Shown here: positions 27,366 to 52,530 of the stretch, piece after piece
How positions within the stretch are numbered: position 1 is the stretch's first letter
How the letters are laid out: each line of letters opens with the position of its first letter
From: an uncultured Pseudomonadota bacterium
GTDB lineage: Bacteria; Myxococcota_A; Polyangia; Fen-1088
Length of the DNA: 64,000 nucleotides
Direction: 5' to 3'
NCBI GenBank assembly: GCA_963847705.1
Contig: CAWKBC010000010.1
Span: 32,001-96,000, forward strand
Notes under the pieces: model-generated
Database searches by the model: none
What the model was told of the DNA's origin: nothing
What the model saw: the letters and a program-made list of their open reading frames with translations, nothing else
Position numbers and translations under genes: made by a program

Positions 27366-29762
27366 ATGGCCAAGGACTTCGATCGCACCAAGCTGCCCAT
27401 CAATGATCCCAGGTTCGCGGGCAAGCGAAACCGGACGCTCGCGGGGTCGAAGCCCGATTGGGCGCTGGCGCAATCGGTGCGGCCCCCCGAGGGCGCACCG
27501 AACGTGCTCCTCGTGCTGATCGACGACGCCGGGTTCGGCAACGCATCGGCCTTCGGAGGACCGATCGCCACCCCAAACCTCACCCGCCTGGCGGAGAGTG
27601 GACTCAAGTACAACCACTTTCACGTGACCGCCCTCTGCTCCCCCACGCGCGCGGCGTTGCTGACGGGGCGCAACCACCACGCGGTCGGCTTCGGCTCGAT
27701 CGGCGAGCTGCCGGGACCGTTCCCCGGCTACTCGGCCGCTCGCCCGCTGTCCTGCGCCCCGTTCACGCAGATCCTGCAGATGAATGGCTACTGCACCTCG
27801 GCGTTCGGCAAGTGGCACATGACGCCCGACCACCAGCAGGGGCCGGCCGGTCCCTTCGATCGCTGGCCCAACGCCTGGGGCTTCGACTACTTCTGGGGCT
27901 TCCTGGGCGGCGAATCCGGTCAGTACGATCCGCTGCTCACCGAGAACAACACCACGATCGGCGTGCCCGACCAGAAGGACCATTACTTCCCCGACGCCAT
28001 GGCCGACAAGGCGATCGACTGGCTGCACGGGGTTCGCGCGCAGGATCCCGAAAAGCCGTTCTTCATGTACTTCTCCACCGGCGCCAGCCACGCGCCGCAC
28101 CAGGTCCCCGCCGAATGGAGCGCCAAGTACCAGGGCAAGTTCGACGGAGGCTGGGACAAATATCGCGAGGAGACCTTCGCCCGTCAGAAGCGCCTGGGCG
28201 TCATCCCCCCGGAGGCGAAGCTCACGCCCCGGCCCGACGCCCTGCCGGCCTGGGAGAGCCTCTCCGCTGATCTGAAGAAGCTCTACGCCCGTCAGATGGA
28301 GGTCTACGCCGGCTACCAGGAGAACGCCGACCACAACGTCGGGCGCCTGGTGGACGCCATCGACGCCATGGGCGAGCGCGACAACACGGTCGTCATCTAC
28401 ATCTGGGGCGACAACGGCGCCAGCCTGGAAGGGACGCTCACCGGCTCGTTCAACGAGCTCACCATGCAGAACGGAATTCCGCTCACCGGCGCCGAGCAGG
28501 TGCAGCTCGTCGAGCACTACGGCGGCGCCGAGGCCTGGGGGAGCGCGCTGCTGGCGCCGCACTACTCGGCGGCCTGGGCCTGGGCTGGCAACTGCCCCTT
28601 CCAGTGGGGGAAGCAGGTGGCCTCCCACCTCGGCGGCACGCGCAACGGAATGGTCGTGGCGTGGCCGGATCGGATCAAGGACGCCGGCGGGTTGCGCCAG
28701 CAGTTCACCCACGTCATCGACATCGGCCCCACCATCCTCGAGCTGGTCGGGCTGCCGGTGGCGACCGAGGTCAACGGCATCAAGCAGGAGCCGATGCACG
28801 GCACCAGCTTCCTCTACACCTTCGACGACAAGGAGGCGGCCGAGCGCCACACCCAGCAGTACTTCGAGATCTACGGCAACCGCGCCATGTACAAGGACGG
28901 CTGGTGGGCGGCGTGCAAGCTCGCGCGCATCCCCTGGGACGCCACGCCGGCCACCATCGCCAAGTTCGCGCCCGAGGTCTACGATCCCGAGAAGGATGTC
29001 TGGGAGCTGTACCACCTGCCGGACGACTTCTCGCAGGCCAACGATCTGGCGGCCCAGAATCCCAAGCAGCTCAAGGAGCTGAAGGAGCTGTTCTGGAAGG
29101 AGGCCGACAAGTACAACGTCACGCCGCTGCTCGCGGGCTTCTCATTTTATTTCGGCATCGTCCCGCCGCTGGGAAAGCAGACCAAGTTCACCTACCACGG
29201 CAAGGTCGAGAACATCGCCTCCGGCATGATCCCGCGCATCTTCAATCACTCCTACACGATCAGCGCCGATCTGGAGATCCCCCACGACGGCGTCGAGGGG
29301 GTGATCGTGGCCGAGGCCGATCACCTGGGCGGCTTCTCGCTCTTCGTCCAGGACGGAAAGCTCAAGCACACCTACAGCATGATGGGCATCCACGTTTACA
29401 AACAGGAGGCCACCGCGCCGCTGCCGAGCGGGCGGGTCAACGTACGCTTGGAGTTCGCCGCCGACGCGGCAAAGATGGGGACGGGCGGCGACGTCTCGCT
29501 CTACGTCAACGAGCACAAGGTCGGCGGGGGGCGAATGGAGCACACGGTTCCGTTCCGGTTCTCGGGCTACGCGGGGATGGACATCGGCCGCGACAACGGC
29601 TTGCCGGTCGACCGCAGCTATGCCGACAGGTCGCCCTTCGCGTTCACCGGGCAGATCCACCAGGTCTCCTTCGACCTGCAGCCCCACCTGGCGGCCGAGG
29701 ACGAGGACGCGATGCACGAAGCGCATCATCACGGCCTGGTGGCGCAGGGCCTGAGGGGCTAG
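27366..29762 (+). CDS. Cys-type arylsulfatase
   Basis: SD AAGGAG; PNVLLVLIDDAG, CSPTRAALLTGRNH (CxPxR), GKWH, GDNGAS; C-terminal LamG-like extension. Confidence 0.95.
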   Translation: MAKDFDRTKLPINDPRFAGKRNRTLAGSKPDWALAQSVRPPEGAPNVLLVLIDDAGFGNASAFGGPIATPNLTRLAESGLKYNHFHVTALCSPTRAALLTGRNHHAVGFGSIGELPGPFPGYSAARPLSCAPFTQILQMNGYCTSAFGKWHMTPDHQQGPAGPFDRWPNAWGFDYFWGFLGGESGQYDPLLTENNTTIGVPDQKDHYFPDAMADKAIDWLHGVRAQDPEKPFFMYFSTGASHAPHQVPAEWSAKYQGKFDGGWDKYREETFARQKRLGVIPPEAKLTPRPDALPAWESLSADLKKLYARQMEVYAGYQENADHNVGRLVDAIDAMGERDNTVVIYIWGDNGASLEGTLTGSFNELTMQNGIPLTGAEQVQLVEHYGGAEAWGSALLAPHYSAAWAWAGNCPFQWGKQVASHLGGTRNGMVVAWPDRIKDAGGLRQQFTHVIDIGPTILELVGLPVATEVNGIKQEPMHGTSFLYTFDDKEAAERHTQQYFEIYGNRAMYKDGWWAACKLARIPWDATPATIAKFAPEVYDPEKDVWELYHLPDDFSQANDLAAQNPKQLKELKELFWKEADKYNVTPLLAGFSFYFGIVPPLGKQTKFTYHGKVENIASGMIPRIFNHSYTISADLEIPHDGVEGVIVAEADHLGGFSLFVQDGKLKHTYSMMGIHVYKQEATAPLPSGRVNVRLEFAADAAKMGTGGDVSLYVNEHKVGGGRMEHTVPFRFSGYAGMDIGRDNGLPVDRSYADRSPFAFTGQIHQVSFDLQPHLAAEDEDAMHEAHHHGLVAQGLRG

Positions 29763-29840
29763 GTCCGGGAGCCGCACTGCGGGCCGACAGGGCCGTCGAG
29801 CCCCCATCTTTCACGAACCTCCCGGTGATACAATGGCGGC

Positions 29841-31961
29841 GTGAAAGACATAGCTTGCGCGCGCGTTGCGTCTCGGGCGCTGTTCTTCTCCTTGGCCTTC
29901 GCCTCGTTGGCCCTGGCGGCCGGGTGCGGCTCCGGCGCGGGCTCCACCGGCAGCCCAGGATCGGGCGGTGGCAGCGGCGCGCCAGGAAGCGGCGGCGCGC
30001 CGGGGAGCGGCGGCGCGCCCGGAAGCGGCGGCGCGGGCACCGGTGGCGCGTCGGGCACCGGTGGGAGCTCCGGCGGAGGAACCGGCGGGACCATCGTCGC
30101 GACGCAGACCTTGAGCCCCAACATCGTGGTCGATCAGTTCGGCTACCGGCCCACGGACGAAAAGATCGCGGTCGTCCGCAACCCGCAAAAGGGATTCGAT
30201 GCGCCCGGCACCTTCACGCCGGGCACCAAGTACGCGCTCGTCGACGCGCACAGCGGCGCGAAGCTGCTGGAGGCGGCGCCGGCCCAGTGGAACGGCGGGA
30301 TGACCGACAGCTCCTCGGGCGACAAGGCCTGGTGGTTCGACTTCTCCACCGTCACCACCGCCGGTGACTACTTCGTCCTCGATGAGACGCAAAACGTCCG
30401 CTCGGACGTCTTCAGCATCTCGGGCAGCGTCTACCGGGACGTGCTGACGCAGGCCACGCGCATGCTCTTCTATCAGCGAGATGGGTTCGCCAAGGCCGCG
30501 CAGTACGCAGGCGCCGCCTGGGCCGACGGCGCCGCCCACACCGGCAAGTGCTACCTCTACAGCGATACGACCATGACGTTGAACCTGGATCTGCACGGCG
30601 GCTGGTGGGACGCCGGTGACTTCAACAAGTACACCAACTGGGGCGCCAGCGACGTCATCGAGCTGATGCACGCCTACGCCGAGACGCCGGCCGCCTTCTC
30701 CGACGCCACCAACATCCCCGAGTCGGGCAACGGCGTCGCCGATCTGCTCGACGAGGTGAAGTGGGAGCTCGACTGGCTGGGCCGCATGCAACAGAGCGAC
30801 GGCTCGGTGCTCAGCATCGTCGGCGAGGCAGCCGCCGAGGCACCCGCCTTCGGCGGCTCGCCCAACACCGCGCCCTCGACGGTGACCGACCCCTGCGCGT
30901 ACGGCCCGGCCTCGACGTCGGCCTCCCTCACCGCCGCCGCCGCTTACGCCTACGGTGCGGTGGTGTTCGGCGCGGCCCCCGGCGCCAGCACCGCCTACCC
31001 CGGCTACGCGGCCGCCCTCGCTCAGCAGGCGCAGAAGGCCTGGACCTGGGCACAGGCGAACCCGGCGGTCTTCTTCTACAACGCGTCGGCGAGCCCCACC
31101 GTCGGCGCCGGCGAGCAGGAGGTTCCGAGCGCCGCCTCCGACCGCACCTATGCGCTCCTGGTGAAGCAGCTCCAGGCCGCGCTCTACCTCTTCGAAGCGA
31201 CCGGCACCACCAGCTACCGCGACTTCTTCGACGCCCACTATTCGGGGATCAACGTCGTCGCCACCGGCTACGCCGACGGCTCGCACGGCGAGGAGCAGGA
31301 GACGCTGCTGGCCTATACGCAGGCGCCCAACGCGACTGCCTCGGTCATCTCCAAGATCAAGAGCGCCTACCTGGGCGCGGCGCAGACCAGCGCCAACCTG
31401 GGCGCCATCACCAGCAACCCCGATCCGTACCTGGCTTACCTCTCGGAGGGCTACTGGTGGGGGATCAACCAGATCAAGAGCGACCAGGGGAACCTGCTCT
31501 ACGACGTGGTCACCTTCGCGCTCGATGCGTCGAGCAGCGCCACCGCCGCCAGGGGCGCCGAGCGCTACGTCCACTGGCTGCACGGCGTGAACCCGTTGCA
31601 GCTGGTCTATCTGTCGAACATGGGGAGCTACGGCGCGCAAAAGTCGGTGACCCGCTTCTTCCACTCCTGGTACGCCAAGGGCTCGAACTGGGACGCCGCC
31701 GGCGTCTCGGAGTACGGGCCGCCCCCCGGCTACCTGACCGGCGGCCCCAACCCCAGTTACACCTGGGACAGCTGCTGCCCGAACAATTGCAGCGGCTACT
31801 CCTGCGGAGCGGCGCAGGCCTCGCCGCCCGCCGGGCAACCTGACCAGAAGTCGTACCTCGATTTCAACGACGGCTGGCCGCTCGACTCCTGGTCCGTCAC
31901 CGAGCCCGACGACGGCTATCAGGCCAAGTACATCCGCCTGCTCTCGAAGTTCGTGAACTGA
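29841..31961 (+). CDS. GH9 glycoside hydrolase lipoprotein with N-terminal Ig-like domain
   Basis: Lipobox LAAG-C, GSGGAP linker, VDQFGY, GGWWDAGDFNKY, DLLDEVKWELDWL, LHGVNP, GYLTGGPN and a C-terminal catalytic Glu (VTEP). Confidence 0.88.
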   Translation: MKDIACARVASRALFFSLAFASLALAAGCGSGAGSTGSPGSGGGSGAPGSGGAPGSGGAPGSGGAGTGGASGTGGSSGGGTGGTIVATQTLSPNIVVDQFGYRPTDEKIAVVRNPQKGFDAPGTFTPGTKYALVDAHSGAKLLEAAPAQWNGGMTDSSSGDKAWWFDFSTVTTAGDYFVLDETQNVRSDVFSISGSVYRDVLTQATRMLFYQRDGFAKAAQYAGAAWADGAAHTGKCYLYSDTTMTLNLDLHGGWWDAGDFNKYTNWGASDVIELMHAYAETPAAFSDATNIPESGNGVADLLDEVKWELDWLGRMQQSDGSVLSIVGEAAAEAPAFGGSPNTAPSTVTDPCAYGPASTSASLTAAAAYAYGAVVFGAAPGASTAYPGYAAALAQQAQKAWTWAQANPAVFFYNASASPTVGAGEQEVPSAASDRTYALLVKQLQAALYLFEATGTTSYRDFFDAHYSGINVVATGYADGSHGEEQETLLAYTQAPNATASVISKIKSAYLGAAQTSANLGAITSNPDPYLAYLSEGYWWGINQIKSDQGNLLYDVVTFALDASSSATAARGAERYVHWLHGVNPLQLVYLSNMGSYGAQKSVTRFFHSWYAKGSNWDAAGVSEYGPPPGYLTGGPNPSYTWDSCCPNNCSGYSCGAAQASPPAGQPDQKSYLDFNDGWPLDSWSVTEPDDGYQAKYIRLLSKFVN

Positions 31962-32037
31962 GCGCGCCAGCTCAGCGGCTGAGCAGCCGGCCCCCAGGGC
32001 ATCAAGCACCGCTGGATTCCGGATCTAGATTGTCGAT

Positions 32038-32238
32038 ATGAGCGTGATGCTGGAATTTACCGATGATGAGCTGCGCGAGCTGACGCTCGCGCTCGAGGAG
32101 CAGCGACACGGCCTGATGATCGAGCTGACCAGCGCAGACGCCCGTGAGTTCAAGGAGCGTCTGCGGATGCAGCTGGAGAAGGTCGAGACGCTCGCGGCGC
32201 GGATCGAGTCGACCGCCCTCCCCGCACCGATGAGCTGA
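32038..32238 (+). CDS. Small helical hypothetical protein
   Basis: 66 aa, amphipathic coiled-coil-like, normal codon usage, fills the gap between GH9 and the convergent kinase. Confidence 0.6.
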   Translation: MSVMLEFTDDELRELTLALEEQRHGLMIELTSADAREFKERLRMQLEKVETLAARIESTALPAPMS

Positions 32239-32243
32239 CTGAC

Positions 32244-33725
32244 TCACCTCGCGACGGAGAATCGCCGGACGCCGAACGCGTGCGCTCCGGGCGACGAGCC
32301 CGCGAAGACGACTGGCGCCCGACCCGTCTCCTGGCCATGGCGCGCGGCGATGGCGTCGACCGCCGCTCGACCACCGCGGCGCGCCAGGACGGCGACGGTC
32401 CCGCCGCTTCCACCGCCGGTGATCTTGGCGCCGTAGAGCCCCGCTGCTGGTCCCGCGGCGCGCACCAGCTCCACCAGGCGATCGGTCGCGGCGGCGGCCA
32501 GCCCGCAGGTGGCGTAGCTGGCGTGCGCTTCGTACATCAGCTCGCCAAGCAGCGTCCGCGACTCTTCACTCTCGGCGCCTCCGGCCAAAAGCGCCCGCCA
32601 CAGGCGGACCCGCTGGTGCTCCTCGATCGGGTGCTCGGTCGCGGCCCGGACGGAATAGCTCCGCGCCGGGTCGACGCGGGTGGCGGGATCGGTCGTGCCT
32701 TGAAACTCGGCGAGGAAGTGCGCTCCGTCGATCCGCTCCGGAACCAGCGTCCGAAACTGCCCGCGCCAGCGGGAGGGCGTGACGTTCGCCAGGTAACCAC
32801 CGAAGATCGGATCGTCGATGGCGACGCGCCCCGGTCCCACAGAGCGCGCGGTGAGCCCCGCCGCGGCAGCGATCATCCGATAACCCATGAAGGCGGCCAC
32901 CCGGACGCTGCCGTAGTCCGCCCCCGACACGGCGTGCCGGACGCCCGAGTCGATCCCGAAGACCTCGATCGACGGCGGCAGCGGCAGGCTGCCCAGGAGC
33001 TCCGCGGGCTGGCAGAGAAGCTCGAGGAGGTGATCCGCCTCGCCGCAGGCAGAGGTCAGCTGGTCCATCACCCCGCAGGGGGCACCGACGATGAAGTTCT
33101 CCACCTGCTGCGCCAGCAGCGCCAGCGCCCTGCCGTCGAGGGCGAGTCCTTGCAGGGCGGCGATCGCTTCGAGCGCGGCGACCTCCAGCGCGGCCGACGA
33201 GCTCACCCCCTTGCCGGTCGGAACGTCGGAGCGAATCAAGAGGCGCATGGGGCGCGGCGGGACGCCGTGCTCGCGGTGGAGGATCACCAGCGCACCCAGG
33301 ACGTAGGCGGTCCAGGCGCGGCGCGGCTCGCGCGCGAACAGCGCCCGGGCCGCCGCGATGTCGAGCGGCGCTTCTCCCGCGGCCAGCTCGGCGAGCGGGA
33401 AGGTCGCGCGCGCCTCCGCCCCGGGATCGCCGAGCTGGTCGCTCTCGATGACAATCTCCTGGCCGCCGGTCTCCTGCGCCGCCACGAAGGTCGCGACCGC
33501 CAGCGGCAGCTCGAGCACGAGCGAGCCCGAGTAGTCGGCGATCCCGCCCATCAGATCGAGGCGGCCCGGCGCGCGCGCCAGCAGGAGCGGGCGGCGCGGA
33601 TCGAAGAAATCGGCCCGGGAAGCGATCCAGGCGATGGCCCGCCCGAGCTCCGAGCCCCTGGGGGGCGCCTCGCCTTCGCGAGACCCGGCCTCGAGACGCC
33701 ACGGCAGGCGCGGCGGAGGTGTCAT
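32244..33725 (-). CDS. GHMP sugar-1-kinase, L-arabinokinase (ARA1)-like
   Basis: RAPGRLDLMGGIADYSGSLVL, PTGKGVSSSAALEVA, GAPCGVMDQ, LLCQPAE, GIDSGVRH, GAKITGGGSGG. Confidence 0.85.
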   Translation of the reverse strand: MTPPPRLPWRLEAGSREGEAPPRGSELGRAIAWIASRADFFDPRRPLLLARAPGRLDLMGGIADYSGSLVLELPLAVATFVAAQETGGQEIVIESDQLGDPGAEARATFPLAELAAGEAPLDIAAARALFAREPRRAWTAYVLGALVILHREHGVPPRPMRLLIRSDVPTGKGVSSSAALEVAALEAIAALQGLALDGRALALLAQQVENFIVGAPCGVMDQLTSACGEADHLLELLCQPAELLGSLPLPPSIEVFGIDSGVRHAVSGADYGSVRVAAFMGYRMIAAAAGLTARSVGPGRVAIDDPIFGGYLANVTPSRWRGQFRTLVPERIDGAHFLAEFQGTTDPATRVDPARSYSVRAATEHPIEEHQRVRLWRALLAGGAESEESRTLLGELMYEAHASYATCGLAAAATDRLVELVRAAGPAAGLYGAKITGGGSGGTVAVLARRGGRAAVDAIAARHGQETGRAPVVFAGSSPGAHAFGVRRFSVAR

Positions 33726-34780
33726 GACGGAGAGAGACCCCGTTCGCCCAACGCCTCCCGGAGCGCCGGCTCCACCTGGGCGCGGATCGCCTCGTTCGCG
33801 TAACCGATCCAGGCGAGCTCGGAGAAGACGTCGAGCGGCGCGCTCAGCCGTCGGCCCGCCTCGTCGGTGACGATCACCCCCGCCTCGCGCGCGATGAGCT
33901 CGGTGGAGAGATCGTAGGGATGGGCGCAGAGCCCCAGCGCCTCGCCGCGCGCCCGCAGCACCGGCTCGACCAGCGGGCGGAGATCGCCCACCCAGCGATC
34001 GTGGCCGACCATGAGCTCGTAGAGCTGCCCGCCGCTGGAGATGTACTGATCTTCGAAGGCGCGCGCGCGCCCCTTCTCGCTTGGTCCCAGGAGGCGCGCC
34101 ACGACGGCGTCGTCGACCGCCGCCAGCTCGGCGCGCGCCCCGGGGAAGAAGCGCGACAGCCCCCCGTACCCCTGGGCGATGGTCTGGGCGCGGGAGGGGG
34201 CGAACGGCAAGGGCCGGCGCTCGCCGGTCAGGCGATTGAACCGCTCGGCCTGCGCGCCGCCGCCCGCCACGGCCCACAGCACGTCGCAGAGGTGCTGCTT
34301 GACGAGTGGAATCTCGGTCTGCACGGCGAGCTCGATGTCGGCGAGCGTGGCCGAGCGCTTCGCCCCTCGCGACCCGCCCCCGGGCCGGAAGGCCGCCACG
34401 CCGGTCAGCACCCAGGCGGATCGCTTCTGGTACATGAGGCCGCGCGTGCCGTCGATCGGATCGACCAGCACCACGATCTCGACGGCCTCCGGTGGCGTCC
34501 CCTCGGGCAGCACGCGCCGGCCGTCCTGGCCCAGCCCCTCGGCCACCAGGAGCAGCGGCCATTCCTGGGCCAGCGACTCGAACTCCGCGAGCAGCACCTC
34601 CTCCGACACCCGATCGATGGCGAACAGCGTGTCACCGGCGTCGTCGCCCACCACCGCCGCCAGCTCGTCGCCCGGACGCGTCTCGCAGCTGGCCACCACG
34701 CGATCGCGGATCTTCTCCTGGATGCCGCGAATCCGGGCCAGCAGCCGATCGACATCGGCCACGTCGCGCAGCGCGCTCAC
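33722..34780 (-). CDS. Inositol-monophosphatase-superfamily sugar phosphatase
   Basis: [25 protein letters not shown]...AREAG; 4-bp overlaps with both neighbours. Confidence 0.75.
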
Positions 34781-35847
34781 GATCCGCTCGTCGACGCGTG
34801 GTGAAGGCCCGGGACGGCCCGCAGCTCGGCTGCCTTCTCCTCGGGAGAGGTGTCGGCCAGGAAGTTGCCGCCGCCGATCTCCGGACCGGCCAGATATTTG
34901 AGCAGGCTCGGCCGCCGCAGTGGCGGGTGAAAGGCGATGAAGAAGTGGTAGGCGTCGCCGGCGCCGACATCGGCGCCGAGCCCGAGCTTCGCCGGCGCCT
35001 GGTGCAGGGCCATGACGTAGGGAAAGGAGACCTTCCACAAGTTGTCGAACCGCGCCGTGACGTTCCCCAGCGCTGCCGCCAGCGACGCCACCTCGGCGTC
35101 GTCGAGCCCGAAGGCGTGCGGCACGCGGCGCTTGGGCGCGACGTAGACCTCGTAGGCGTAGCGGGCGAAATAGGGGACGAAGGCGATCACCCGCTCGTCC
35201 TCGAACAGAATGCGCCGGCCGTCCTGCTGCTCCGCGCGGATCAGGTCGTCGAAGAGCGCACGCCCGGTCCGGTCGCGGTGGCGAATCGACGCCGCCAGCT
35301 CGACCTCGACCGTCCTGAACACGAAGTTCGTGGCGTAGATCTGCCCGTGCGGGTGGGGGTTGGAGACGCCGACCACCTCCCCTTTGTTCTCGAAGCAGAG
35401 GACGTGCTCGACCTCGGGCCGCGCGCAGAGATCGCGCGTCTCGCGCCGCCAGACCTCGACCACCTCGCCGATCGCGGCGGCGGGCATCTCGGCCAGCGTG
35501 AGATCGTGACGGGGCGAGAAGCAGACGACGCGCGCGATGCCGGTGGCGCGCCGCGACTGATAGGGGGCCGGCGGAGCAACCGTTGCGGGGGCGTCAGGCC
35601 CGACGCAAGGGTGGTCGTTGTCGAACACGAACGTCCCGGTGTAGTCCGCGTTGCGCAGGCCGCTCACCCGCATGTTGCCCGGGCACAGATGACAGCGGGG
35701 ATCGTGACGGACCGGCCGCGTCGTCGTGGCCGCGACGGTCTCACCCGTCCAGGGCCGCGTCTGACGGTGGGCGGCGACGATCACCCACTCCTCGCGCAAG
35801 GGGTGCCACCGCTCCTCCCAGGTCTGCGGAGCACCGTCCGACGTCAT
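34777..35847 (-). CDS. galT: Galactose-1-phosphate uridylyltransferase family (HIT)
   Basis: [51 protein letters not shown]. Confidence 0.9.
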
Positions 35848-35849
35848 GC

Positions 35850-37499
35850 TCAGAAGGCGACCTCGGCCTGCAGCTTGACGACGTTCTGGTCGGGCGTCAT
35901 GCCCGAATACGGGCCCTGTTGGAGGACATTGGCTCCCGCCACGAGCGGTGCGTTCCACGGCCATTGCTGATTGAGCTTCATGTTGTCGCCGTAGAAGTAT
36001 CGAGAGTACTGAAAGTAGATGCGCTCGCTGGAAAGGAAATGCGAGGAGAAAATGACCCGCGGCGTGAAGGCGGCGAAGACGTATCCGGACTGGCCCAGAG
36101 CGTAATTGACCTCATCGAAGCGAAGCATGAAGGCGAACCAGGTCGTAGCCTGGAGGGTCGCGTCCACACCGTACTTGAACTGCTTGATCTCGTTCTGGGC
36201 GAGAATCGAATACTGCTTGAGAGTCGACCCGGTCGGCAAATTGAGCTTGCTGTCCGCCAGCAGCCCGAAGACGCTCACCGTCACGTCGGGCACCCCACCC
36301 GGCGCGATACCCCGGACCCCGGAGAGCGTGTTCTCATAGAGGAAGCCGAAATTGAGCATCGATCCGCTGCCGGTCGAGTCGGTGGGGCTGCCGGTATAGG
36401 CCATGTAGTTCGTGGCGATGCCCGCGGCGCTGAGCGAGTGCATGACCTCGGTCCCCGCGCTGGCCAGCGCCCAGCCATTTCGAACGCTGAGAAACGACGG
36501 GGAGAGCCACAGATGACCCCAGTAGGGCGCACGCACGTTGCCCTCGAAGCCGACGACCGAGAGATGCGCCTGCTGGGCTGCCGCATAGGACTTGTCACCC
36601 GGCGTGGATTGCTGGGTCAGGTTCGGGTCGGCGGTCCACTCGGTGTTGATGTGAAACGCCAGGTCCGCGTACTTCGCGTAGTTGACCTTGAGATTCAGGT
36701 AGGCCAGCAGATCGACACCCGTGATGGCCCCGTAAAAGGCGGGAGCCCCAGGATTGAAGCTGCCGTCCCGTCCGGTCCCGAACCCTCCCACCCCCGTGAA
36801 CGTCCAGTCGGGAGTGAAAGGAACCGTCGCTTTCAATTGCCCACCCAACTGGCGAAAGCGCCCGAGCGTGTAAGTGTCGTATTTCTCGAAGTACCCAAAG
36901 CTCGGCCACCAGGCGCCCGCCGTGAAGGCAATGTTCGGTTTGAGATCGCCATCGCCGAGATCCGTATCGAGGGCGACGTAGGCCAGGCCCGGCGCCCACG
37001 CCGCGTCGTAGTTCCGGAACCCGACCGACTGGAACCAGTACCCCATCCATCCGACCGCGGCGTCGACGTGCTTCTTCCGGGCGTGGATGAAGACCTCCGC
37101 CCAGTCCTGCTCCTGCAGGCGTGTGTAGGCGAAGCTGTAGTAGTTCGCGTCGACCGTTCGATTGGGCCCGTACGACACCTGCGTGCTGGAGGGCCCCGTC
37201 GGGTTGTCGGGCCCCGGGCGTGAGCTGATGCCCAGCGCCATGGGCGCACGGAAGTACCCGTTGACGTCGATGTGCCAAGGCCCTGGGACGGGGGCCGGTT
37301 GCACTTCACTGGCGGCCGGCGGTTGGGGCGGCTGCGCCGTCGGCGGCGCCGGGGGCGGCGCGGTCGGCAGCGCGGGTGGCGGCTCTGCCTCCCCGGCCGG
37401 GGACTCGTCGGTCGGGTCAGCCGTCGGGGGTGCGGCCACCGCCCGAAGGGCCACCAGGGACGTCAACAACACGAAGGACGCTTGGAATTTTCTGCGCAT
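35850..37499 (-). CDS. Outer-membrane beta-barrel protein, putative carbohydrate porin
   Basis: Signal peptide, Pro-rich linker, alternating aromatic beta-strands, C-terminal KLQAEVAF. Confidence 0.7.
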
Positions 37500-37515
37500 C
37501 GGATCGACGAGCCGC

Positions 37516-39003
37516 CTACTTGCCGTACTTCGCAGCAACGATGTTGGATTGAACGGAGTTGAGGGTGGCCAGCGAGGCGGCGCCGCTGGCCATGACGCCC
37601 TCGAACCACTCTCCCCCGTCGCTGTTGCTGTTGTCGCCGCCGATGCCGAGGATGATCGACCCCTGCTTGTGCATCGGAACGTAGCCCGTCTTGGCCGGCC
37701 GTATTCCGTCGTATTCGGTGGTCAAGGCGCCGTTCGTCGCGTCGGCGCCATAGAGCGCGAAGCGCCCCTTTCCCGAGTTCTGCGAGGCCACGTCGCCGAC
37801 GACCATGGCCGTCACGAAGTTGAACTTGAGCGGCGTGTTGGTGGCGATGTCCTGGTCATCACCGTCCCAGCCGGCGTAGAGACCGTTCTCCAGATCGGCT
37901 TCCACCCACGGACCATTGTTGTGGCCACCCGGAGAGCCGGTGCCCCAGACCACGCCTCCACCGAAGTAGACCGCCTCCATGGTGCCATTGCCGTCGTCAT
38001 GCGAGTCCGTCTCCGCGTTGCCATAGTCGAAGCAGCAGCCGTCGATCAGATTGTTCTGGCTCGTCACCATGTACTCGGTCTCGGCCGCGTCGCCGGTGGC
38101 GGTCCCCTTGGGGGTCACGACTCCGCAGCCGGTGCAGCCGGCGCGGTAGCCGATCCCCGTCTTGATGAGAATGCCGTAGACCGTGTGGCCGTTGGCTGTC
38201 GTCTTGAGGTCGGTGGCGCTGGCCGGATTGTCAGCGGTGGCGACGGCGCCGCCGCCAGGACCCGGCTTGAGGTGATTTCCGTTGGGGGACTGATCGTAGA
38301 TGATCGAGATGGTGCAGCTCCCGCCGGAGCAGAACGCGTCCTGAGAGGCGGAGTCGGCGTAGCCGGCCACCACCCCGATGTCCTTGGTCGTCCCCTTACA
38401 AGAATTCGGTCCCGTCACGAACGACCCCTTGCAGACCTGGTAGAGATTCCCGGTGTAGCTGCCGTAGAGCGCGCGCACCGTACTGTGGGCGGCGACGCAA
38501 GCGTTGCCGGCGCTGGCCAGGATGTCGCAAGGCCCGGTGAGAGCAACCGTGCCCCCGGTGCCGGTCGTGCCGCCGGTGGCCGGCGTGCCCCCGGTACCGG
38601 GCGTTCCGCCGGTGGCCGGTGTGCCGCCGCTGCCGGGCGTACCACCAGTGCCGGGTTTGCCGCCAGCGCCACCGGTCCCCGGCGTGCCACCCGTCCCCGG
38701 CGTGCCGCCAGTGCCGGGCGTGCCGCCGCTGCCGGGCGTGCCGCCAGCCCCCGGCCCGCCGCCGCTGCCGACGATGCCGCCGGTGCCGGTGGAGCCGCCG
38801 GTGTCAGTCGCGCCACCGGTTCCGGTCGAACCACCTGTGTCGCTGGTGCCGCCGGTCCCGGTGAAACCGCCGGTGTTATCTCCCGACGAGCCGCCGCCAC
38901 CGTCGCCGCCACTGCTGCCAGATGAAAACGACCAACATGAAGCGACGAGGACGCCGAGCGACAGCGCGAGGGACAGTGGTGCGGCGGAGCGAATCTTCTT
39001 CAT
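37516..39003 (-). CDS. Alpha-L-arabinofuranosidase B (GH54) catalytic domain with G/T-rich linker; probable lipoprotein
   Basis: GPCDI...CVAAHSTVRALY, IYDQS, CCFDYGNAET, GTMEAVYFG, ADLENGL, GIGGDNS...EGVM; signal ending LVAS-C. Confidence 0.9.
   Translation of the reverse strand: MKKIRSAAPLSLALSLGVLVASCWSFSSGSSGGDGGGGSSGDNTGGFTGTGGTSDTGGSTGTGGATDTGGSTGTGGIVGSGGGPGAGGTPGSGGTPGTGGTPGTGGTPGTGGAGGKPGTGGTPGSGGTPATGGTPGTGGTPATGGTTGTGGTVALTGPCDILASAGNACVAAHSTVRALYGSYTGNLYQVCKGSFVTGPNSCKGTTKDIGVVAGYADSASQDAFCSGGSCTISIIYDQSPNGNHLKPGPGGGAVATADNPASATDLKTTANGHTVYGILIKTGIGYRAGCTGCGVVTPKGTATGDAAETEYMVTSQNNLIDGCCFDYGNAETDSHDDGNGTMEAVYFGGGVVWGTGSPGGHNNGPWVEADLENGLYAGWDGDDQDIATNTPLKFNFVTAMVVGDVASQNSGKGRFALYGADATNGALTTEYDGIRPAKTGYVPMHKQGSIILGIGGDNSNSDGGEWFEGVMASGAASLATLNSVQSNIVAAKYGK
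38551..38880 (-). repeat. 18-bp coding tandem repeat (GTGGTP)n linker
   Basis: Translates as GTGGTPGTGGTPGTGGAGGKPGTGGTPGSGGTPATGGTP and similar. Confidence 0.85.
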
Positions 39004-39450
39004 TTGCGACATCTCCAGGTACATAGGTCCCTCGATCGGGACCAGCGGGGCCGGTTGTGGCTGGGGGACAAGAGAGACTCCCGAAGGGTTCGTTCAGCGT
39101 GAGATATCGCGGACCTACCGGGGACCCCTGGGGCACACCCACCACCTGGAAAGGGTCCGCTGGTCGTGGATTGATGCAATCGAGAGGTGCCGTGTCGCCG
39201 ATCTTTCGGCTCAAGGTCCCCAGCGAACCATGAAGGCGTTTGCCCGGGAGAGCTGTCTGTTGTCAATGTTTCGGACTCGGCGTCTGCATCACGAATTCGA
39301 CCCGCGGCCTGTGCCATCTCCGTGTCGCCGCTTCGCCCGAACCCACCCGGCCACCAGGCGGCGACCGGGATCGATCTGCGGCCGCGCCGCGCGGACCAAG
39401 CACGCCGGCGCCCGACGCCGGCCGGTAGACGATCCGCTAGGTCTTCGGCG

Positions 39451-41280
39451 CTAGCTCTTCAACGACTGGCGGTAGGCGCGCCAGCCGCCGAAGCTCGAGA
39501 TGTCGGCCGCGCCGGCGAGCGCGTAGCCCTCGCAGAGGAACCCGGAGACGCGCGTCCCGTCGGCGAGCGAGAGGCTGCCGATGCAGAGCGGGGGCGGCAC
39601 CGCGGCGACGAAGGTCCCGAAGGCCTCCGCCGACAGCGCCCAGACCTCGATCTCGATCGCCACCCCGTCGCTGTCGACGCGGCCGAGGCCGGGCTTGGCG
39701 GGCGTGGTGTTGGGGAGGGCGTACAGCCGATAGACCGGCGCGGTCCGGGTGGCTCGAACGAATCGGCCGTCCAGCATCGTGAGCTGGTGGTTGAGCGGCT
39801 CGCCCGACAGGTGCGCGCCGACCACCGCGATCGAGATGAGCCCCGCCGTCGCCGAGACCGGCGGTGTCGCGGGGATCAGGTGGGGCCCGGCGCCCATGGT
39901 CCGGCTGGTGGCCCGGTGCACGAGGGCGGCGAAGGCGGCCAGGCGGGCGTCGCTCCCGGCGGGGCCGATCACCGTCGCGCCGGCGGGGAGACCGTCGGCG
40001 CGAAATCCGGTCGGCACCGCCACGGCCGCCAGGTCGAGCAGGTTGACGAAGTTCGCGTAGGCCCCGAGCGCCGAATTGAGGCCCAGCGGATCGGCCTCCA
40101 CCTCGTCCATGCGAAAGATGGTGGGCGTGGTGGGGACCAGCAGGAAGTCGACGGCGGCCAGCGCGCGGCCGGCGGCACGACGGAGCTGGCGCAGCCGGTG
40201 CTGGGCCTCGAAGGCGGCCGCCGCGTCGAAGCGCGCGGCGCTCTCCAGAATCGTCCGGACCGGCCCGATGATCGCGCCCGGCGCCGACGCCAGCAGGCCG
40301 CCGGTGGCGGCCAGCCGCTCGGCCACGAACGGGCCGTCGTAGAGCAGGCCGCCGGCCTCGCGAAAGGGGGCGAAGTCGACGTCGACGCGCTGGCCGCCCG
40401 AGGCGGCCAGCGTCTCCAGCGTTCGCTCGAAGACGCTCTGGGCGGCGAGATCGCCGCGGAAGTCGAGCGCCGCGCCCGCCGGAACGCCGAAACGAAACCG
40501 CGGCGGCGCGACCGTGGGCGTGAAGCGAACCGCGCCCGCGTCGGGGCGCGCGCCGGGATCGGAGTCGTCCGAGCCGCGCATGAGCTCGGCGATCTGGGCG
40601 GCGTCCTCGACGGTGAGCGCGAAGACCGAGACGCAGTCGAGCGAGCGGCAGGCGGGGACGACGCCGGTCGTGCTCAGGACGCCGCGGGTCGGCTTGAGAC
40701 CGACGATGTTGTTGAAGGCAGCCGGAACGCGCCCCGACCCGGCCGTGTCGCTGCCGAGCGCGAAGCTCACCAGGCCAGCCCCCACCGCCACCCCGGAGCC
40801 GGAGCTGGAACCGCCCGGGATGTAGCGCGCGTCGAACGGGTTGCGCGGGATCCCGTAGGGCGAACGGACACCGACCAGGCCGGTGGCGAACTGGTCGAGG
40901 TTGGTCTTCCCCAGGCAGAGCGCGCCGGCGGCCCGGAGGCGGGCCACCACCGGCGCGTCCGCCTTGGGCGTGTAGGTGAAGGCCGGGCAGGCCGCCGTGG
41001 TCGGCAGCCCGGCGACGTCGATGTTGTCCTTGACGGCGAAGGGGACGCCGAAGAGCGGCAGAGCCTCGCCGCCGGCCCGGCGCCGCTCGAGCTCCTTCGC
41101 CTGGGTCAAGAGCTGGGCCCGATCGGTCGCCGCGATCCAGACGCCGTCGTCTCCGCGCTCGTCGATGAGGGCGAAGATCTCGGCCAGAACCTCGGCCGGC
41201 CGCCCGCCGTCCTCGTACCTGCGGGCGAGGACACCGAGATCGAGGCTGGGAAAGTTCGCGGCGCGAGGCTTCGTCGACAT
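39451..41280 (-). CDS. atzF: Allophanate hydrolase
   Basis: FAVKDNID, GKTNLDQFATGLVG, GGSSSGS, DTAGSGRVPA; C-terminal domain VVGAHLSGEPLN...DISSFGGWRAY. Confidence 0.95.
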   Translation of the reverse strand: MSTKPRAANFPSLDLGVLARRYEDGGRPAEVLAEIFALIDERGDDGVWIAATDRAQLLTQAKELERRRAGGEALPLFGVPFAVKDNIDVAGLPTTAACPAFTYTPKADAPVVARLRAAGALCLGKTNLDQFATGLVGVRSPYGIPRNPFDARYIPGGSSSGSGVAVGAGLVSFALGSDTAGSGRVPAAFNNIVGLKPTRGVLSTTGVVPACRSLDCVSVFALTVEDAAQIAELMRGSDDSDPGARPDAGAVRFTPTVAPPRFRFGVPAGAALDFRGDLAAQSVFERTLETLAASGGQRVDVDFAPFREAGGLLYDGPFVAERLAATGGLLASAPGAIIGPVRTILESAARFDAAAAFEAQHRLRQLRRAAGRALAAVDFLLVPTTPTIFRMDEVEADPLGLNSALGAYANFVNLLDLAAVAVPTGFRADGLPAGATVIGPAGSDARLAAFAALVHRATSRTMGAGPHLIPATPPVSATAGLISIAVVGAHLSGEPLNHQLTMLDGRFVRATRTAPVYRLYALPNTTPAKPGLGRVDSDGVAIEIEVWALSAEAFGTFVAAVPPPLCIGSLSLADGTRVSGFLCEGYALAGAADISSFGGWRAYRQSLKS

Positions 41281-41403
41281 CGGAACGGAGAATGCCGAAC
41301 CGAACCGTCGACGACAACTGCCGTCAACCGCGCGAAAGTGAAGTTACCAATAATTCGGGGCGACGAAAGAATCGAGAAACATGCGGCGGCCTATAAGCAA
41401 TCC

Positions 41404-42534
41404 ATGAATCAATTTCGACTGTTCGCTCGCTCGATGGTAGCTCGTGCCCTCGCGGTTTCCGTTTTTCTGGGTGTCCTCGGCATCGCTGGAGAGGGATCCG
41501 CCAAGGCGGCTCCCACGCCGCTGACCGTCGGCTTCATCTTCGTCGGTCCCAAGACCGATTTTGGCTATAACCAGTCTCACGCAGAGGGCGCGGCGGTGAT
41601 CGCCAAGCTGCCCGGCATCAAGATTCGCGAAGAGGAAATGGTCCCGGAGACCTCCGCCGTCCAGAAGACGATGGAGAGCATGATCAACCTCGACGGCGCG
41701 ACGGTGCTGTTTCCGACCTCGTTCGGTTACTTCGATCCGCACATCTTGAAGGAGGCGGTCAAGTACCCGAAGGTCACCTTCCTGCACTGCGGCGGCATGT
41801 ACCAGGAGGGCAAGACCCCCACCAACGTGGGGAGCTACTTCGGGTACATCGACGAGGCCCAGTACGTGGCGGGAATCGTGGCCGGGTTGACGACCAAGTC
41901 GAACAAGCTCGGGTTCATCGCCGCCAAGCCGATCCCGCAGGTGCTTCGCAACATCAACTCCTACACGCTCGGCGCCAAGTCGGTGAACCCCAAGATCACC
42001 ACCAGCGTCATCTTCACCGGCGACTGGTCGATGCCGGTCAAGGAAGCGGAGGCAGCCAACAGCTTGATCGACCAGGGCGTGGACGTTCTGACCATGCACG
42101 TCGACTCGCCCAAGGTCATCGTCGAGACCGCCGAGCGCCGCGGCGTCTTCGTCACCGGCTACCACGTCAACCAGTCGGCCCTGGCGCCGAAGGGGTATCT
42201 GACCGGCGCCGAGTGGAACTGGGGCAAGGTCTACACGGATTACGTCGACTGGATTCAGAACGGCAAGCCCTGGCCGCACCTCCTGCGCGGCGGGCTCAAG
42301 GAGGGATTCGTCAAGGTCTCGCCGTACGGCAAGGCGGTCTCGGCCGCCGCCAAGAAGAAGGCCGACGCCGCCAAGGCCAAGTTCATGGCCGGCACGATGG
42401 TCATCTACAAGGGGCCGCTCAAGGACAACACCGGCAAGGTCGTGATTCCGGCCGGGACCGAGGAAAAGCAGACCGACATCGCGCTCGAGAAGATGGACTA
42501 CCTGGTCGACGGCGTGATCGGGAAGACGCACTGA
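41404..42534 (+). CDS. BMP-family ABC substrate-binding protein
   Basis: Signal peptide; VGFIFVGPKTDFGYNQSH, FPTSFGY, LGFIAAKPIPQV. Alternative start at 41434. Confidence 0.9.
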   Translation: MNQFRLFARSMVARALAVSVFLGVLGIAGEGSAKAAPTPLTVGFIFVGPKTDFGYNQSHAEGAAVIAKLPGIKIREEEMVPETSAVQKTMESMINLDGATVLFPTSFGYFDPHILKEAVKYPKVTFLHCGGMYQEGKTPTNVGSYFGYIDEAQYVAGIVAGLTTKSNKLGFIAAKPIPQVLRNINSYTLGAKSVNPKITTSVIFTGDWSMPVKEAEAANSLIDQGVDVLTMHVDSPKVIVETAERRGVFVTGYHVNQSALAPKGYLTGAEWNWGKVYTDYVDWIQNGKPWPHLLRGGLKEGFVKVSPYGKAVSAAAKKKADAAKAKFMAGTMVIYKGPLKDNTGKVVIPAGTEEKQTDIALEKMDYLVDGVIGKTH

Positions 42535-42565
42535 GCCACGCAGGGACGGACGCGGGGCGCCAAAA

Positions 42566-43711
42566 GTGGGAATCGGCGTGAGCATCGGCGCGATTTCACC
42601 TGCCACTGAGCGGTCGCCGCAAGCGGCCGCCGTGGCGGCTGCGGCGGCCGAGGCGCGCCGCGACGCCTGGCGGAGGTCGATCGAATCGGTCGCCATTCCG
42701 CTGGGCGCCATCGTGGCGGCGCTGATCCTGTTCGGCGTCTTCATGGCGCTGACCGGACGCAACCCGCTGGCGGTCTACCACGAGATGTTCCGCGGCTCGT
42801 TCGGGACCGCCTTCTCGTTCCAGAACACGCTGCAGCGGGCGGCGCCGATCATGCTGACCGCGCTGGCCACGGCGATCCCGCTGCGGCTCGGGCTGGTGGT
42901 GCTGGGTGGCGAAGGGGCCATGGTGCTGGGCGGGCTGGCGGCGGCGGCGATCGGGATCCACCTGCACACGCCGTTCACGATCAAGCTCGGGATGTTCGTG
43001 ACCGGCTCGCTGGTCGGCGGCCTCTGGGTGGCCGGCGCCGGGGCGCTCCGCGCCTACCGGGGTGTCAACGAGACGATCAGCTCGCTGCTGCTCAACTACA
43101 TCGCCATCGCGCTCCTCAACCACATCGTCGAGGGGCCGCTGCGCGATCCGGCCAGCCTCAACAAGCCTTCGACGCTGCCTATCGGGGACGACAACATGCT
43201 CGGCAACCTGCCCGGGCTGGACGTGCACTGGGGCCTGGGCTTCGCGCTCATCGCCTGCCTCATCGCCTGGTTCCTCATGCAGCGGACCACCTTCGGTTTC
43301 GCGGCGCGCATGGTGGGCGGCAACGTCCGCGCGGCGCTACTCAACGGGCTGCCGGTGCGGCGCCTGATCGTGATCGCGACCTTCCTGGGCGGCCTCGGGG
43401 CCGGCCTGGCGGGCGCGGTCGAGGTCGCGGCGATCCACGGCAACGCCAACGCGTCGCTCGTCACCGGCTACGGCTACACCGGGGTGCTGGTGGCCTTCAT
43501 CGCGCGCGCCAATCCGTTCGGCGTCATCCCGGTCGCGCTGCTCCTGGGCGGTATCGGCGCCAGCGGCGGGCTCCTGCAGCGGGTCTTCGATCTTCCGGAC
43601 GCGACGGTCAACGTGCTGCAGGGGACGATCTTCATCGCGATCTTGTTCTCGGATTCGCTCTACGGCCGGCGCTGGGGCCGCGCCAAGCCGGCCAAGGCGG
43701 TGGCGGCGTGA
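42566..43711 (+). CDS. ABC permease (nucleoside/CUT2 type)
   Basis: Multi-TM; GGEGA, NETISSLLLNYIA, GYGYTGVLVA. Confidence 0.88.
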   Translation: MGIGVSIGAISPATERSPQAAAVAAAAAEARRDAWRRSIESVAIPLGAIVAALILFGVFMALTGRNPLAVYHEMFRGSFGTAFSFQNTLQRAAPIMLTALATAIPLRLGLVVLGGEGAMVLGGLAAAAIGIHLHTPFTIKLGMFVTGSLVGGLWVAGAGALRAYRGVNETISSLLLNYIAIALLNHIVEGPLRDPASLNKPSTLPIGDDNMLGNLPGLDVHWGLGFALIACLIAWFLMQRTTFGFAARMVGGNVRAALLNGLPVRRLIVIATFLGGLGAGLAGAVEVAAIHGNANASLVTGYGYTGVLVAFIARANPFGVIPVALLLGGIGASGGLLQRVFDLPDATVNVLQGTIFIAILFSDSLYGRRWGRAKPAKAVAA

Positions 43712-44622
43712 GCGCGGCCGGTGGCGTCGCGCTGGGAATGATCGGCGGAGCGGTCCGGATCAGCACGCCGTTCCTGTTCGTCAGCCTGGGCGAGTGCCTC
43801 ACCGAGAAGAGCGGCCGCGTGAACCTCGGGCTCGAAGGGACGCTGGTCATGGGGGCGATGGCCGCCTACGGCGTCTCCTACCTGACGAATTCGCCCTGGC
43901 TCGGCGTGCTGGCTGCCGGCTGCTGCGGCGTCGTGCTGGGGGCGCTGCACGCCTGGCTCTGCGCGCGGCCGCGCGTGAACGACGTTGCGGTCGGGATCGC
44001 GCTCATGCTCTTCGGTGTCGGGCTGGCGTTCTTCCTGGGCAAGCCGCTGGTCGGGCCGAGCGCGCCGCATCTGCCGGCGGTGTCGCTCGGCTGGTGGAGC
44101 GCCTCGTCGCAGGTGCGTTCGGCGCTGCAGGTGAACGCGCTGTTCGTCCTCGGCCTGGTCACGACGTTCGCCGTTCGCTTCGTCCTGCGGCGAACGCGCT
44201 GGGGGCTCATCGTCCGCACGGTGGGCGAGAGCGCGGACACCGCGCGCGCCATGGGCTACGACGTGGCCCGGGTGCGCCAGCTGGCCACCATGGCGGGCGG
44301 CTTCCTGGCCGGCATCGGCGGCTCGTTCCTCTCGCTGTTTTATCCCGGGAGCTGGAACGAGGGGCTCTCCAGCGGACAGGGGCTGATGGCGGTGGCGCTG
44401 GTGATCTTCGCGCGCTGGGATCCCGTCCGCTGTTTGCTGGCGTCGCTGCTCTTCGGCGGCGCCAGCGCGCTCGGCCCGGCCCTGCAGTCGGTGGGGGTGA
44501 CGTCGGGGTACTACCTCTTCAACGCGGCGCCCTACGCGCTCACGCTGGCGATCATCGTGGCGACCAGCTCGCGCGATCGGGCGCTCAACGGTCAACCCGC
44601 CGAGCTGCGGGTGGCCAGGTAG
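43708..44622 (+). CDS. ABC permease
   Basis: EKSGRVNLGLEG, VGESADTARAMG, GQGLMAVALVIFARW. Confidence 0.9.
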   Translation: MSAAGGVALGMIGGAVRISTPFLFVSLGECLTEKSGRVNLGLEGTLVMGAMAAYGVSYLTNSPWLGVLAAGCCGVVLGALHAWLCARPRVNDVAVGIALMLFGVGLAFFLGKPLVGPSAPHLPAVSLGWWSASSQVRSALQVNALFVLGLVTTFAVRFVLRRTRWGLIVRTVGESADTARAMGYDVARVRQLATMAGGFLAGIGGSFLSLFYPGSWNEGLSSGQGLMAVALVIFARWDPVRCLLASLLFGGASALGPALQSVGVTSGYYLFNAAPYALTLAIIVATSSRDRALNGQPAELRVAR

Positions 44623-44660
44623 GCAGAAGGCAAGAGGGCAAGAAGGCAAGAAGGTAGAGA
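44621..44660 (+). repeat. Purine-rich 8-bp tandem repeat (GGCAAGAA) upstream of biuH
   Basis: aggcagaa ggcaagag ggcaagaa ggcaagaa ggtagaga. Confidence 0.75.
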
Positions 44661-44667
44661 CAAAACG

Positions 44668-46937: not shown

Positions 46938-46979
46938 CGGCTGGCCGACTCAATCACCGCGTTGTACCGTGTCGCCCGG

Positions 46980-47345: not shown

Positions 47346-47349
47346 GCCC

Positions 47350-48192: not shown

Positions 48193-48199
48193 GAGGACC

Positions 48200-50526: not shown

Positions 50527-50536
50527 GAGGCCAGTC

Positions 50537-51695: not shown

Positions 51696-51738
51696 GCAAG
51701 CGACGGGAGCTCCGGATGACCCGTCGGGGAGATTCCGC

Positions 51739-52514: not shown

Positions 52515-52530
52515 TGGTCCACCCCTTGCA
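52515..52530 (+). promoter_or_regulatory. Possible sigma54 -24/-12 promoter for the PII gene
   Basis: TGGTCCACCCCTTGCA gives GG-N10-GC with TTGCA. It would produce an almost leaderless transcript. Confidence 0.35.

Follow-up and report, generated by a model that had tools for sequence, protein, structure and literature searches.

We analysed a 64-kb stretch of DNA (~70% G+C; the window in what follows) on contig CAWKBC010000010.1 (C10) of the uncultured bacterial assembly GCA_963847705.1, in which a five-gene operon at positions 32244-39003 probably encodes a Leloir-type pathway for pentoses, by which L-arabinose would be converted to D-xylose. We infer its substrates and reactions throughout from gene families, clades, gene order and gene neighbourhoods. 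The source assembly spans 6.1 Mb in 48 contigs and is 84.7% complete and 6% contaminated, and the closest named relatives of the window's proteins are found in metagenome-assembled genomes (MAGs) of Polyangia (Myxococcota). The five genes had been singled out, with their coordinates and spacings, in a prediction made earlier from the sequence of the stretch (the original prediction), and all of these were confirmed by open reading frame (ORF) calling and family scans. From the upstream to the downstream end of the operon they are:

37516-39003, minus strand: glycoside hydrolase family 54 (GH54) alpha-L-arabinofuranosidase, 495 aa, with an alternative ATG at 39024
35850-37499, minus strand: porin-like outer-membrane protein, 549 aa
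34777-35847, minus strand: class-I uridylyltransferase of the GalT family, 356 aa
33722-34780, minus strand: inositol monophosphatase (IMPase)-like phosphatase, 352 aa, GTG start
32244-33725, minus strand: GHMP sugar-1-kinase, 493 aa

The genes are co-directional and run head to tail, with a 16-bp gap between the GH54 and outer-membrane protein genes, a 2-bp gap between the latter and the GalT gene, and 4-bp overlaps at the GalT/IMPase (GTGA) and IMPase/kinase (ATGA) junctions. A spacer of 447 bp separates the operon from an upstream allophanate hydrolase gene. No promoter-like sites were obtained in a scan of positions 31800-39600, the three terminator-like sites in the same interval did not exceed the level of shuffled sequence, and an Rfam scan of the window returned no match near the operon.

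L-Arabinopyranose corresponds to D-galactose without C6, and D-xylopyranose to D-glucose without C6. In the route that we propose, the GH54 lipoprotein would act outside the cell to free L-arabinose from arabinan or arabinoxylan, and the outer-membrane protein would admit the sugar, after which the kinase would use ATP to form beta-L-arabinose-1-phosphate (Ara-1-P). The GalT would then react Ara-1-P with UDP-xylose (UDP-Xyl), or with UDP-glucose (UDP-Glc) as primer of the cycle, to give UDP-L-arabinose (UDP-L-Ara) and xylose-1-phosphate (Xyl-1-P); a GalE-family 4-epimerase, encoded on contig C29, would return UDP-L-Ara to UDP-Xyl; and the IMPase-fold enzyme would hydrolyse Xyl-1-P to free D-xylose, which would enter the xylA-xylB route encoded on contig C27. 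Summed up, the route would amount to Ara + ATP -> Xyl + ADP + Pi. A phosphatase would be required in such a route because xylopyranose-1-phosphate, without C6, cannot pass a phosphoglucomutase-type 1,6-shift, and with free xylose as the product, xylose isomerase (XylA) and xylulokinase (XylB) make sense as follow-on genes. The 4-epimerisation has a plant counterpart, as UGE1, UGE3 and MUR4, all of the GalE family, interconvert UDP-Xyl and UDP-L-Arap according to an excerpt of PMC5897480. In the full-text literature searched, with most subscription journals outside its scope, no description of a bacterial Leloir-type arabinose route was found.

The assignment of the kinase is central to this reading. 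Both GHMP_kinases_N/C domains and the GalK signature domain were found in the protein, and its structure model displays the GalK fold, with a Z score of 38 to human and archaeal GalK. Its score on TIGR00131, the GalK equivalog profile, is 127.1 bits, under the cut-off of 226.65; the canonical GalKs of the genomes that hold the kinase score 240-418 bits. It is 43-48% identical to plant L-arabinokinases of the ARA1 family over ~91% of the query (E ~1e-110) and 25-31% identical to the canonical GalKs of the holder genomes. In a quick maximum-likelihood run with IQ-TREE, 21 kinases taken from the recurrent set of GalT, IMPase-like and kinase genes (the trio) and six plant ARA1 kinase halves stood apart from 19 canonical GalKs with a Shimodaira-Hasegawa-like approximate likelihood-ratio test (SH-aLRT) value of 100, and the plant ARA1 sequences were nested inside the bacterial kinase group. 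The two sets also carry different motifs: 'MGGI(A/G)DYSG' is present in all 21 trio kinases and all six plant ARA1 sequences, and 'GEH(T/V)DYN' in 18 of the 19 full-length canonical GalKs from holder genomes. The window's kinase has 'MGGIADYSG' at the site where GalK has 'IGEHTDYN', and thus lacks the GalK signature 'G-E-H-x-D-Y', of which we take the Glu and His to contact galactose. A literature search for the sugar-contact residues of GalK, PMC8056384 included, gave no usable residue-level passage.

The plant ARA1 relatives are ~870-1100 aa long (typically ~990), some of them with PF13528 in addition, and the 493-aa window protein aligned to their kinase half only. ARA1 is described in an excerpt of PMC5897480 as a genetically defined plant L-arabinokinase that converts L-arabinose to L-Ara-1-P. 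A member of the kinase family is also deposited in the PDB as 'AbGHMP' (9ulx/9uly; E 8.6e-143, alignment over residues 39-488, motif MGGIADYSGSLVLE in common), and the existence of the 9ulx entry shows prior work by others on a family member; no description of 'AbGHMP' was found in the literature searched, within the scope given above. The family is large, with at least 7966 matches at E <= 0.001 among 8000 scored protein candidates, and the Joint Genome Institute (JGI) annotates about half of those homologues that have a name as 'galactokinase'. Judged by its sequence, the window's protein is not a galactokinase and belongs to the ARA1-type GHMP sugar-1-kinases, and we predict that it is an L-arabinose 1-kinase.

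The distribution of the canonical enzyme points the same way. A GalK over the cut-off is encoded elsewhere in 36 of the 40 kinase-holder genomes, including that of the closest relative (G001), and in many of them a second GalT lies beside it. The trio is a paralogue set and not the cell's galactose pathway. As the principal interpretation of the operon, an ordinary Leloir pathway was ruled out by the kinase clade, the signature and this coexistence, and it was kept as a minor rival for the source genome. Some Acidobacteriota that hold the trio also encode an extra FKP-like fusion of 810-850 aa between a GalK-like GHMP kinase and a nucleotidyltransferase (L125:7770-10304, L126:7019-9448 and L128:7107-9665); a DeoR-like gene lies near this fusion in L126, L127 and L128, and an ORF of 1213-1219 aa in L125, L127 and L128, which in L128 proved to encode a TonB-dependent receptor.

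The GalT contains PF01087 and PF02744 and reaches 267 bits on TIGR00209 (cut-off 102.1). It aligns to E. coli GalT (1hxq; E 8e-68) including the HPH motif 'SNPHPHGQ' and the Cys pair 'CHLCPG'. The sugar-side loop of canonical GalT (E. coli KFMVGYEMLAETQR) is absent from the window's protein; in place of the canonical 'RKFMVG(Y/F)EM-LAEPQRD', the trio GalTs have a clade signature with a one-residue insertion, in which P313, A320 and G325 are group-specific and present in 61 of 61 sequences and Y318 in 98%. These features place the protein in a trio-specific clade of class-I enzymes.

The third member of the trio is more divergent. The IMPase-like protein scores 20.4 bits on PF00459, under the cut-off of 27, and had no PDB match by sequence at E <= 1. 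Its structure model (predicted local distance difference test score, pLDDT, of 90) resembles archaeal IMPase/fructose-bisphosphatases (FBPases), namely AF2372 (Z 27.6, root-mean-square deviation (rmsd) 2.1 over 249 residues) and MJ0109 (Z 27.3), the fold matches having rmsd values of 2.1-2.3 over ~250 residues. D56, E60, E81, the stretch D107-P-I-D110-G-T112 and D290 show no variation, or almost none, among 38 orthologs, and by comparison with IMPase motifs the invariant acidic residues presumably sit at the metal site. The protein represents a divergent IMPase/FBPase branch with ~100 extra residues. Because the IMPase fold (Z 27.6) is combined with invariant metal-site residues, the phosphatase looks active, and we predict that it acts on pentose-1-phosphates, specifically Xyl-1-P. 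Fusions of the IMPase-like protein to the kinase were observed in a Myxococcales MAG, as one ORF of 852 aa (L019:3797-6355, plus strand), and in P0015 (847 aa).

The first two genes of the operon would supply the sugar. The GH54 protein matches PF09206, the only Pfam family found in it, with 352.9 bits (cut-off 25) over residues 158-493 and profile positions 1-314 of 315, and it aligns to the catalytic domain of Aspergillus AbfB (1wd3, 6sxt) with an E of 2e-74 over 337 residues. Of the 483 residues of the PDB chain, 3-317 are aligned, and the window's protein stops two residues past the catalytic domain; it therefore has the catalytic domain of the AbfB-type enzymes but not their C-terminal arabinose-binding domain. 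On inspection, the N-terminus shows a signal peptide with a lipobox-like VASC, followed by a Gly/Thr/Ser-rich linker of ~130 aa, and we predict a lipoprotein. No Pfam or NCBIfam family was found in the outer-membrane protein. Its look-alikes in a language-model search, which we use as a lead only, are Myxococcota 'porin family protein' clusters and BBP2, Porin_O_P and LamB clusters, and it is on this search that its prediction as a porin and uptake channel is based. In the related locus L016 the orthologs of the GH54 protein (72% identical) and the outer-membrane protein (74%) occupy the same positions, the latter between GH54 and GalT. The two genes are a lineage-specific front end of the trio.

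In order to characterize the trio beyond the window, we examined the 80 best of an estimated ~1100 matching stretches among species-representative genomes. The gene arrangement was judged in 73 of these loci, the remaining seven having too little upstream DNA. The window's exact order, GalT-IMPase-kinase, is found in 50 of the 73, GalT-kinase in 15, IMPase-kinase in two and the kinase alone in six. Trio loci occur in Myxococcota, Chloroflexota, Gemmatimonadota, Acidobacteriota, Planctomycetota, Latescibacterota and KSB1, and it is likely that the module is real and widespread. A PhyH-family dioxygenase gene adjoins the GalT-kinase pair in some Gemmatimonadota and Latescibacterota loci where the IMPase gene is absent (L042:8037-8789, L051:8041-8844 and L094 near 9750).

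Neighbouring genes were counted over the 80 loci by tblastn (E <= 1e-15, coverage >= 0.5), and 139 neighbour ORFs from 18 diverse loci were scanned against Pfam (all but two end-truncated ones of the 141 called). A GalE-family epimerase is present in 32 of the 80 loci, and the arabinofuranosidase families GH51, GH43, GH127 and GH54, the most frequent glycosidase partners, in 27. A survey of this kind had been proposed with the original prediction, and the trio did prove to be joined recurrently both to arabinan hydrolases and to a 4-epimerase of the GalE family. Ribose-type sugar ABC binding proteins were counted in 21 loci, XylA in 18, XylB in 12 and GalM in eight. The linked genes that we sampled exceed the NCBIfam equivalog cut-offs, with 409-436 bits for GalE (cut-off 262), 533 for XylA (447) and 528 for XylB (380). 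Representative gene orders are:

L087: GH51-GalT-IMPase-kinase-GalE-XylA-GH127
L077: GalT-IMPase-kinase-GalE-XylB-XylA
L024 (Gemmatimonadaceae MAG): GH127-GalT-IMPase-kinase
L022 and L036 (Chloroflexota): XylA directly after the kinase

As a control we used 20 canonical-GalK neighbourhoods from the same genomes, one of which (L115) overlaps the flank of a trio locus (L061). Neither XylA nor an IMPase-like gene was found in any of the 20, whereas the trio loci of these same genomes contain XylA in 11 cases and arabinofuranosidase families in 12.

The remaining enzymes of the proposed route are encoded elsewhere in the source genome. The original prediction had called for a 4-epimerase outside the window, and one bona fide GalE (420.9 bits) is indeed present on contig C29; it shares 71% identity with the epimerase encoded immediately before GalT in the Polyangia locus L017. 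The xylA (550 bits) and xylB (544 bits) genes lie on contig C27 in a galM-xylB-xylA unit divergent from a sugar ABC transporter. The ORF at 4288-5235 of the window, which had been put forward as a UDP-xylose synthase, is a UXS/ArnA/dehydratase-like short-chain dehydrogenase/reductase that scores below every NCBIfam cut-off, and we could not confirm that identity. The idea that arabinose is converted to xylose in a Leloir-type manner, also part of the original prediction, is supported by the kinase clade, the coexistence with GalK, the conservation of the trio and its linkage to epimerase, arabinofuranosidase and xylAB genes.

Several observations weigh against this reading, the foremost being that the source genome has a complete araB-araA-araD operon on contig C1 (L007, C1:128000-147000; operon 8165-13744). 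Its products score 598 bits as ribulokinase (cut-off 583), 745 as L-arabinose isomerase (622) and 331 as AraD (257), and a LamB/maltoporin-like gene comes after the operon, with genes for an AraC-family regulator and a GGDEF-EAL protein before it. We reason that araBAD makes the trio route redundant for growth on arabinose, and that the trio route is one ATP dearer. The original prediction had implied that a canonical arabinose route was missing, a premise that fails at the level of the genome; its narrower statement, that araA, araB and araD do not occur in the window, holds, as the sole AraA_N match of the genome is on C1, and no arabinose catabolic gene was found among the 43 of 52 called window ORFs scanned against Pfam. 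A G+C-rich intergenic repeat near araBAD (L007:6600-6950 and 1440-1720) has dozens of matches in G001 at 66-85% identity and resembles a lineage-specific repeat family; because this family is common to C1 and to G001, a Polyangia relative, C1 is probably not contamination. When the araBAD region was compared with the DNA of G001 no synteny was seen, and only an AraC-like gene (72% identity) and the repeat family matched.

The absence of araA from other holders does not help either. It was not found in 38 of the 40 other kinase holders, and in a background of 151 sampled Acidobacteriota araA is present in four genomes and the kinase in six, with no overlap. An anticorrelation between araA and the kinase was therefore dropped as powerless, since its absence from 38 of 40 holders is no different from this background. 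We also considered the GalT loop as a marker of pentose specificity and dropped it, since an intermediate form, which partly shares the trio signature, is found in the GalTs adjoining canonical GalK in L105 and L108. Further points on this side are that the epimerase, xylA and xylB are unlinked to the trio in the source genome, which moreover shows no GalK-like gene besides the trio kinase and no GalT besides that of the trio, so that the trio could also serve galactose; that the linkage of GH54 and the outer-membrane gene to the trio is confined to the window and L016; that the 15 GalT-kinase loci have no adjoining IMPase gene; and that the galactose-related families GH2 and GH42 occur in four and three of the 80 trio loci, with distant GH51-like genes (24-26% identity) in four of the 20 canonical-GalK neighbourhoods. 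Four Chloroflexia/Ktedonobacteria loci (L018, L021 of the isolate Dictyobacter aurantiacus S27, L025 and L027) have the set DeoR/GalE/GalT/IMPase/kinase with no glycosidase or xyl gene nearby, and in L018 a GT1-family glycosyltransferase gene lies just downstream of the kinase. Finally, Acidobacteriota dominate the neighbourhood counts, which are phylogenetically non-independent; each of the two key associations is nonetheless seen in three or more phyla.

Some of these points would be accommodated by a plant-like salvage of UDP-L-Ara for glycans, an alternative already named in the original prediction, in which the GalT would use UDP-Glc, arabinosyltransferases would be fed, and the phosphatase would merely limit toxic sugar-1-phosphates. 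The kinase is of the plant salvage type, araBAD already covers catabolism in the source genome, and both the glycosyltransferase behind the L018 kinase and the lack of degradative genes near the Chloroflexia/Ktedonobacteria loci would fit. Salvage, however, needs no dedicated phosphatase, yet 50 of the 73 judged loci have the phosphatase as their conserved middle gene, and it is sometimes fused to the kinase; nor does it need xylA or xylB, yet XylA accompanies 18 of the 80 trio loci and none of the 20 control loci. The usual partners of the trio are catabolic, comprising secreted glycosidases, sugar ABC importers, DeoR regulators and GalM. We consider salvage unlikely as the general explanation, although such a role is possible in some lineages.

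A somewhat smaller chance is left to an ordinary or dual-purpose Leloir pathway, which would take D-galactose, perhaps together with L-arabinose, from arabinogalactan and in which GalE would close the cycle. The state of the source genome, with no other GalK-like gene or GalT and with GalE present, speaks for it, as do the GalT score over the equivalog cut-off, the 'galactokinase' label given by JGI to about half of the named kinase homologues, and the GH42 or GH2 genes of a few trio loci. It is difficult to reconcile with the separate canonical GalK of 36 out of 40 holders, many of which have a separate GalT next to it, and with a kinase that has 'GGI', as in the plant L-arabinokinases, and not the 'GEH' of GalK; in addition, the Glc-1-P formed from galactose needs no phosphatase. 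With an assembly completeness of 84.7%, a canonical galK could simply have been left out of the contigs, and its absence may reflect either the ~15% of the genome that is unassembled or a dual role of the trio.

GHMP anomeric kinases and GalT paralogues of other specificity exist, the GalT of the bifidobacterial lacto-N-biose/galacto-N-biose (LNB/GNB) pathway being an example of the latter. It is nevertheless improbable that the trio handles another galacto-configured sugar (such as D-fucose, L-arabinose analogues or a uronic acid) and that its link to arabinofuranosidases merely reflects mixed plant-wall loci, in which GH2, GH42, DUF2961 and PhyH genes also occur, given that the kinase clade includes the plant L-arabinokinases defined genetically (PMC5897480, in excerpt), that arabinofuranosidase families are the commonest glycosidase partners (27 of 80 loci), and that the recurrent downstream xylose isomerase makes sense only with xylose as the product.

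Taken as an arabinose-to-xylose route, the trio shares with the Leloir pathway of E. coli (GalM, GalK, GalT and GalE) the set of a GHMP anomeric kinase, a class-I HPH uridylyltransferase and a GalE-family epimerase, the last being unlinked in the source genome, as well as the proposed logic of 4-epimerisation at the level of the UDP-sugar. It differs in that the kinase is not GalK, an IMPase-fold phosphatase is an integral third gene, and the predicted product is free xylose instead of Glc-1-P; moreover, in most holders the trio coexists with a true GalK and often with a second GalT, and its partners are arabinofuranosidases and xylA/xylB. With the plant salvage pathway (ARA1 and UDP-sugar pyrophosphorylase) it has in common the kinase clade and the predicted first step, but the bacterial kinase lacks the N-terminal glycosyltransferase-like half of ~500 residues, UDP-Ara is predicted to come from a GalT-type transferase and not from a pyrophosphorylase, and the context of the trio is catabolic. 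Textbook bacterial catabolism of L-arabinose proceeds by the isomerase (AraBAD) route and by oxidative routes. The presumed substrate and the end point, xylulose-5-phosphate of the pentose phosphate pathway, are the same as for AraA/AraB/AraD, whereas the enzymes and chemistry are unrelated, and by our reckoning the trio route would spend two ATP per pentose and AraBAD one.

L-Arabinose ranks among the main plant cell-wall pentoses. If the proposal is correct, bacteria would have an additional, nucleotide-sugar route for L-arabinose that ends in xylose, and this would explain how arabinose freed by GH51, GH43 and GH127 enzymes could be used in abundant soil lineages where araA is mostly not seen. 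A large IMPase-like family and a GalT clade, both at present mis-annotated or unannotated, would likewise gain functions. The proposal would also provide a source of enzymes for Ara-1-P, UDP-L-Ara and Xyl-1-P, and bear on the origin of plant ARA1. A broader proposition is, in our judgement, evenly poised: that many soil bacteria run an undescribed catabolic 'pentose Leloir cycle' made up of an ARA1-type kinase, a specialised GalT, a GalE-type UDP-Xyl/UDP-Ara 4-epimerase and a dedicated xylose-1-phosphate phosphatase, and that plant L-arabinokinase derived its kinase domain from this bacterial clade. The window itself adds modestly to such a picture, namely a form from Myxococcota in which genes for a GH54 lipoprotein and a porin-like protein join the module, and the case that the module can coexist with araBAD.

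Outside the operon, the window contains a urea/allophanate module and housekeeping genes. Genes for a sulfatase (798 aa) and for a GH9 glycosidase with a CelD_N domain (27366-31961, plus strand) converge on the 3' end of the operon, and nothing was found that ties this pair to it. Between the GH9 gene and the stop codon of the kinase lies a 66-aa ORF (32038-32238, plus strand) of coding-like composition and with no Pfam family. On the other side, a nitrogen-scavenging block at 39451-59375 includes allophanate hydrolase, a Bmp-type ABC transporter, isochorismatase-family genes, the urease alpha subunit, a UreD accessory gene and a Peripla_BP_5/branched-chain-type ABC system that is likely for urea; this block is unrelated to the sugar operon. 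Within the urease alpha-subunit gene (48814-50526, plus strand), an antisense match to the Rfam family 5_ureB_sRNA was obtained at 48964-49249 on the minus strand (69.5 bits, E 6e-16), for which conservation of the coding sequence alone may account. At 7912-15071 (plus strand), the genes of a TonB-ExbB-ExbD-ExbD unit precede one for a TonB-dependent-receptor-like protein of 1062 aa with a CarboxypepD_reg domain.

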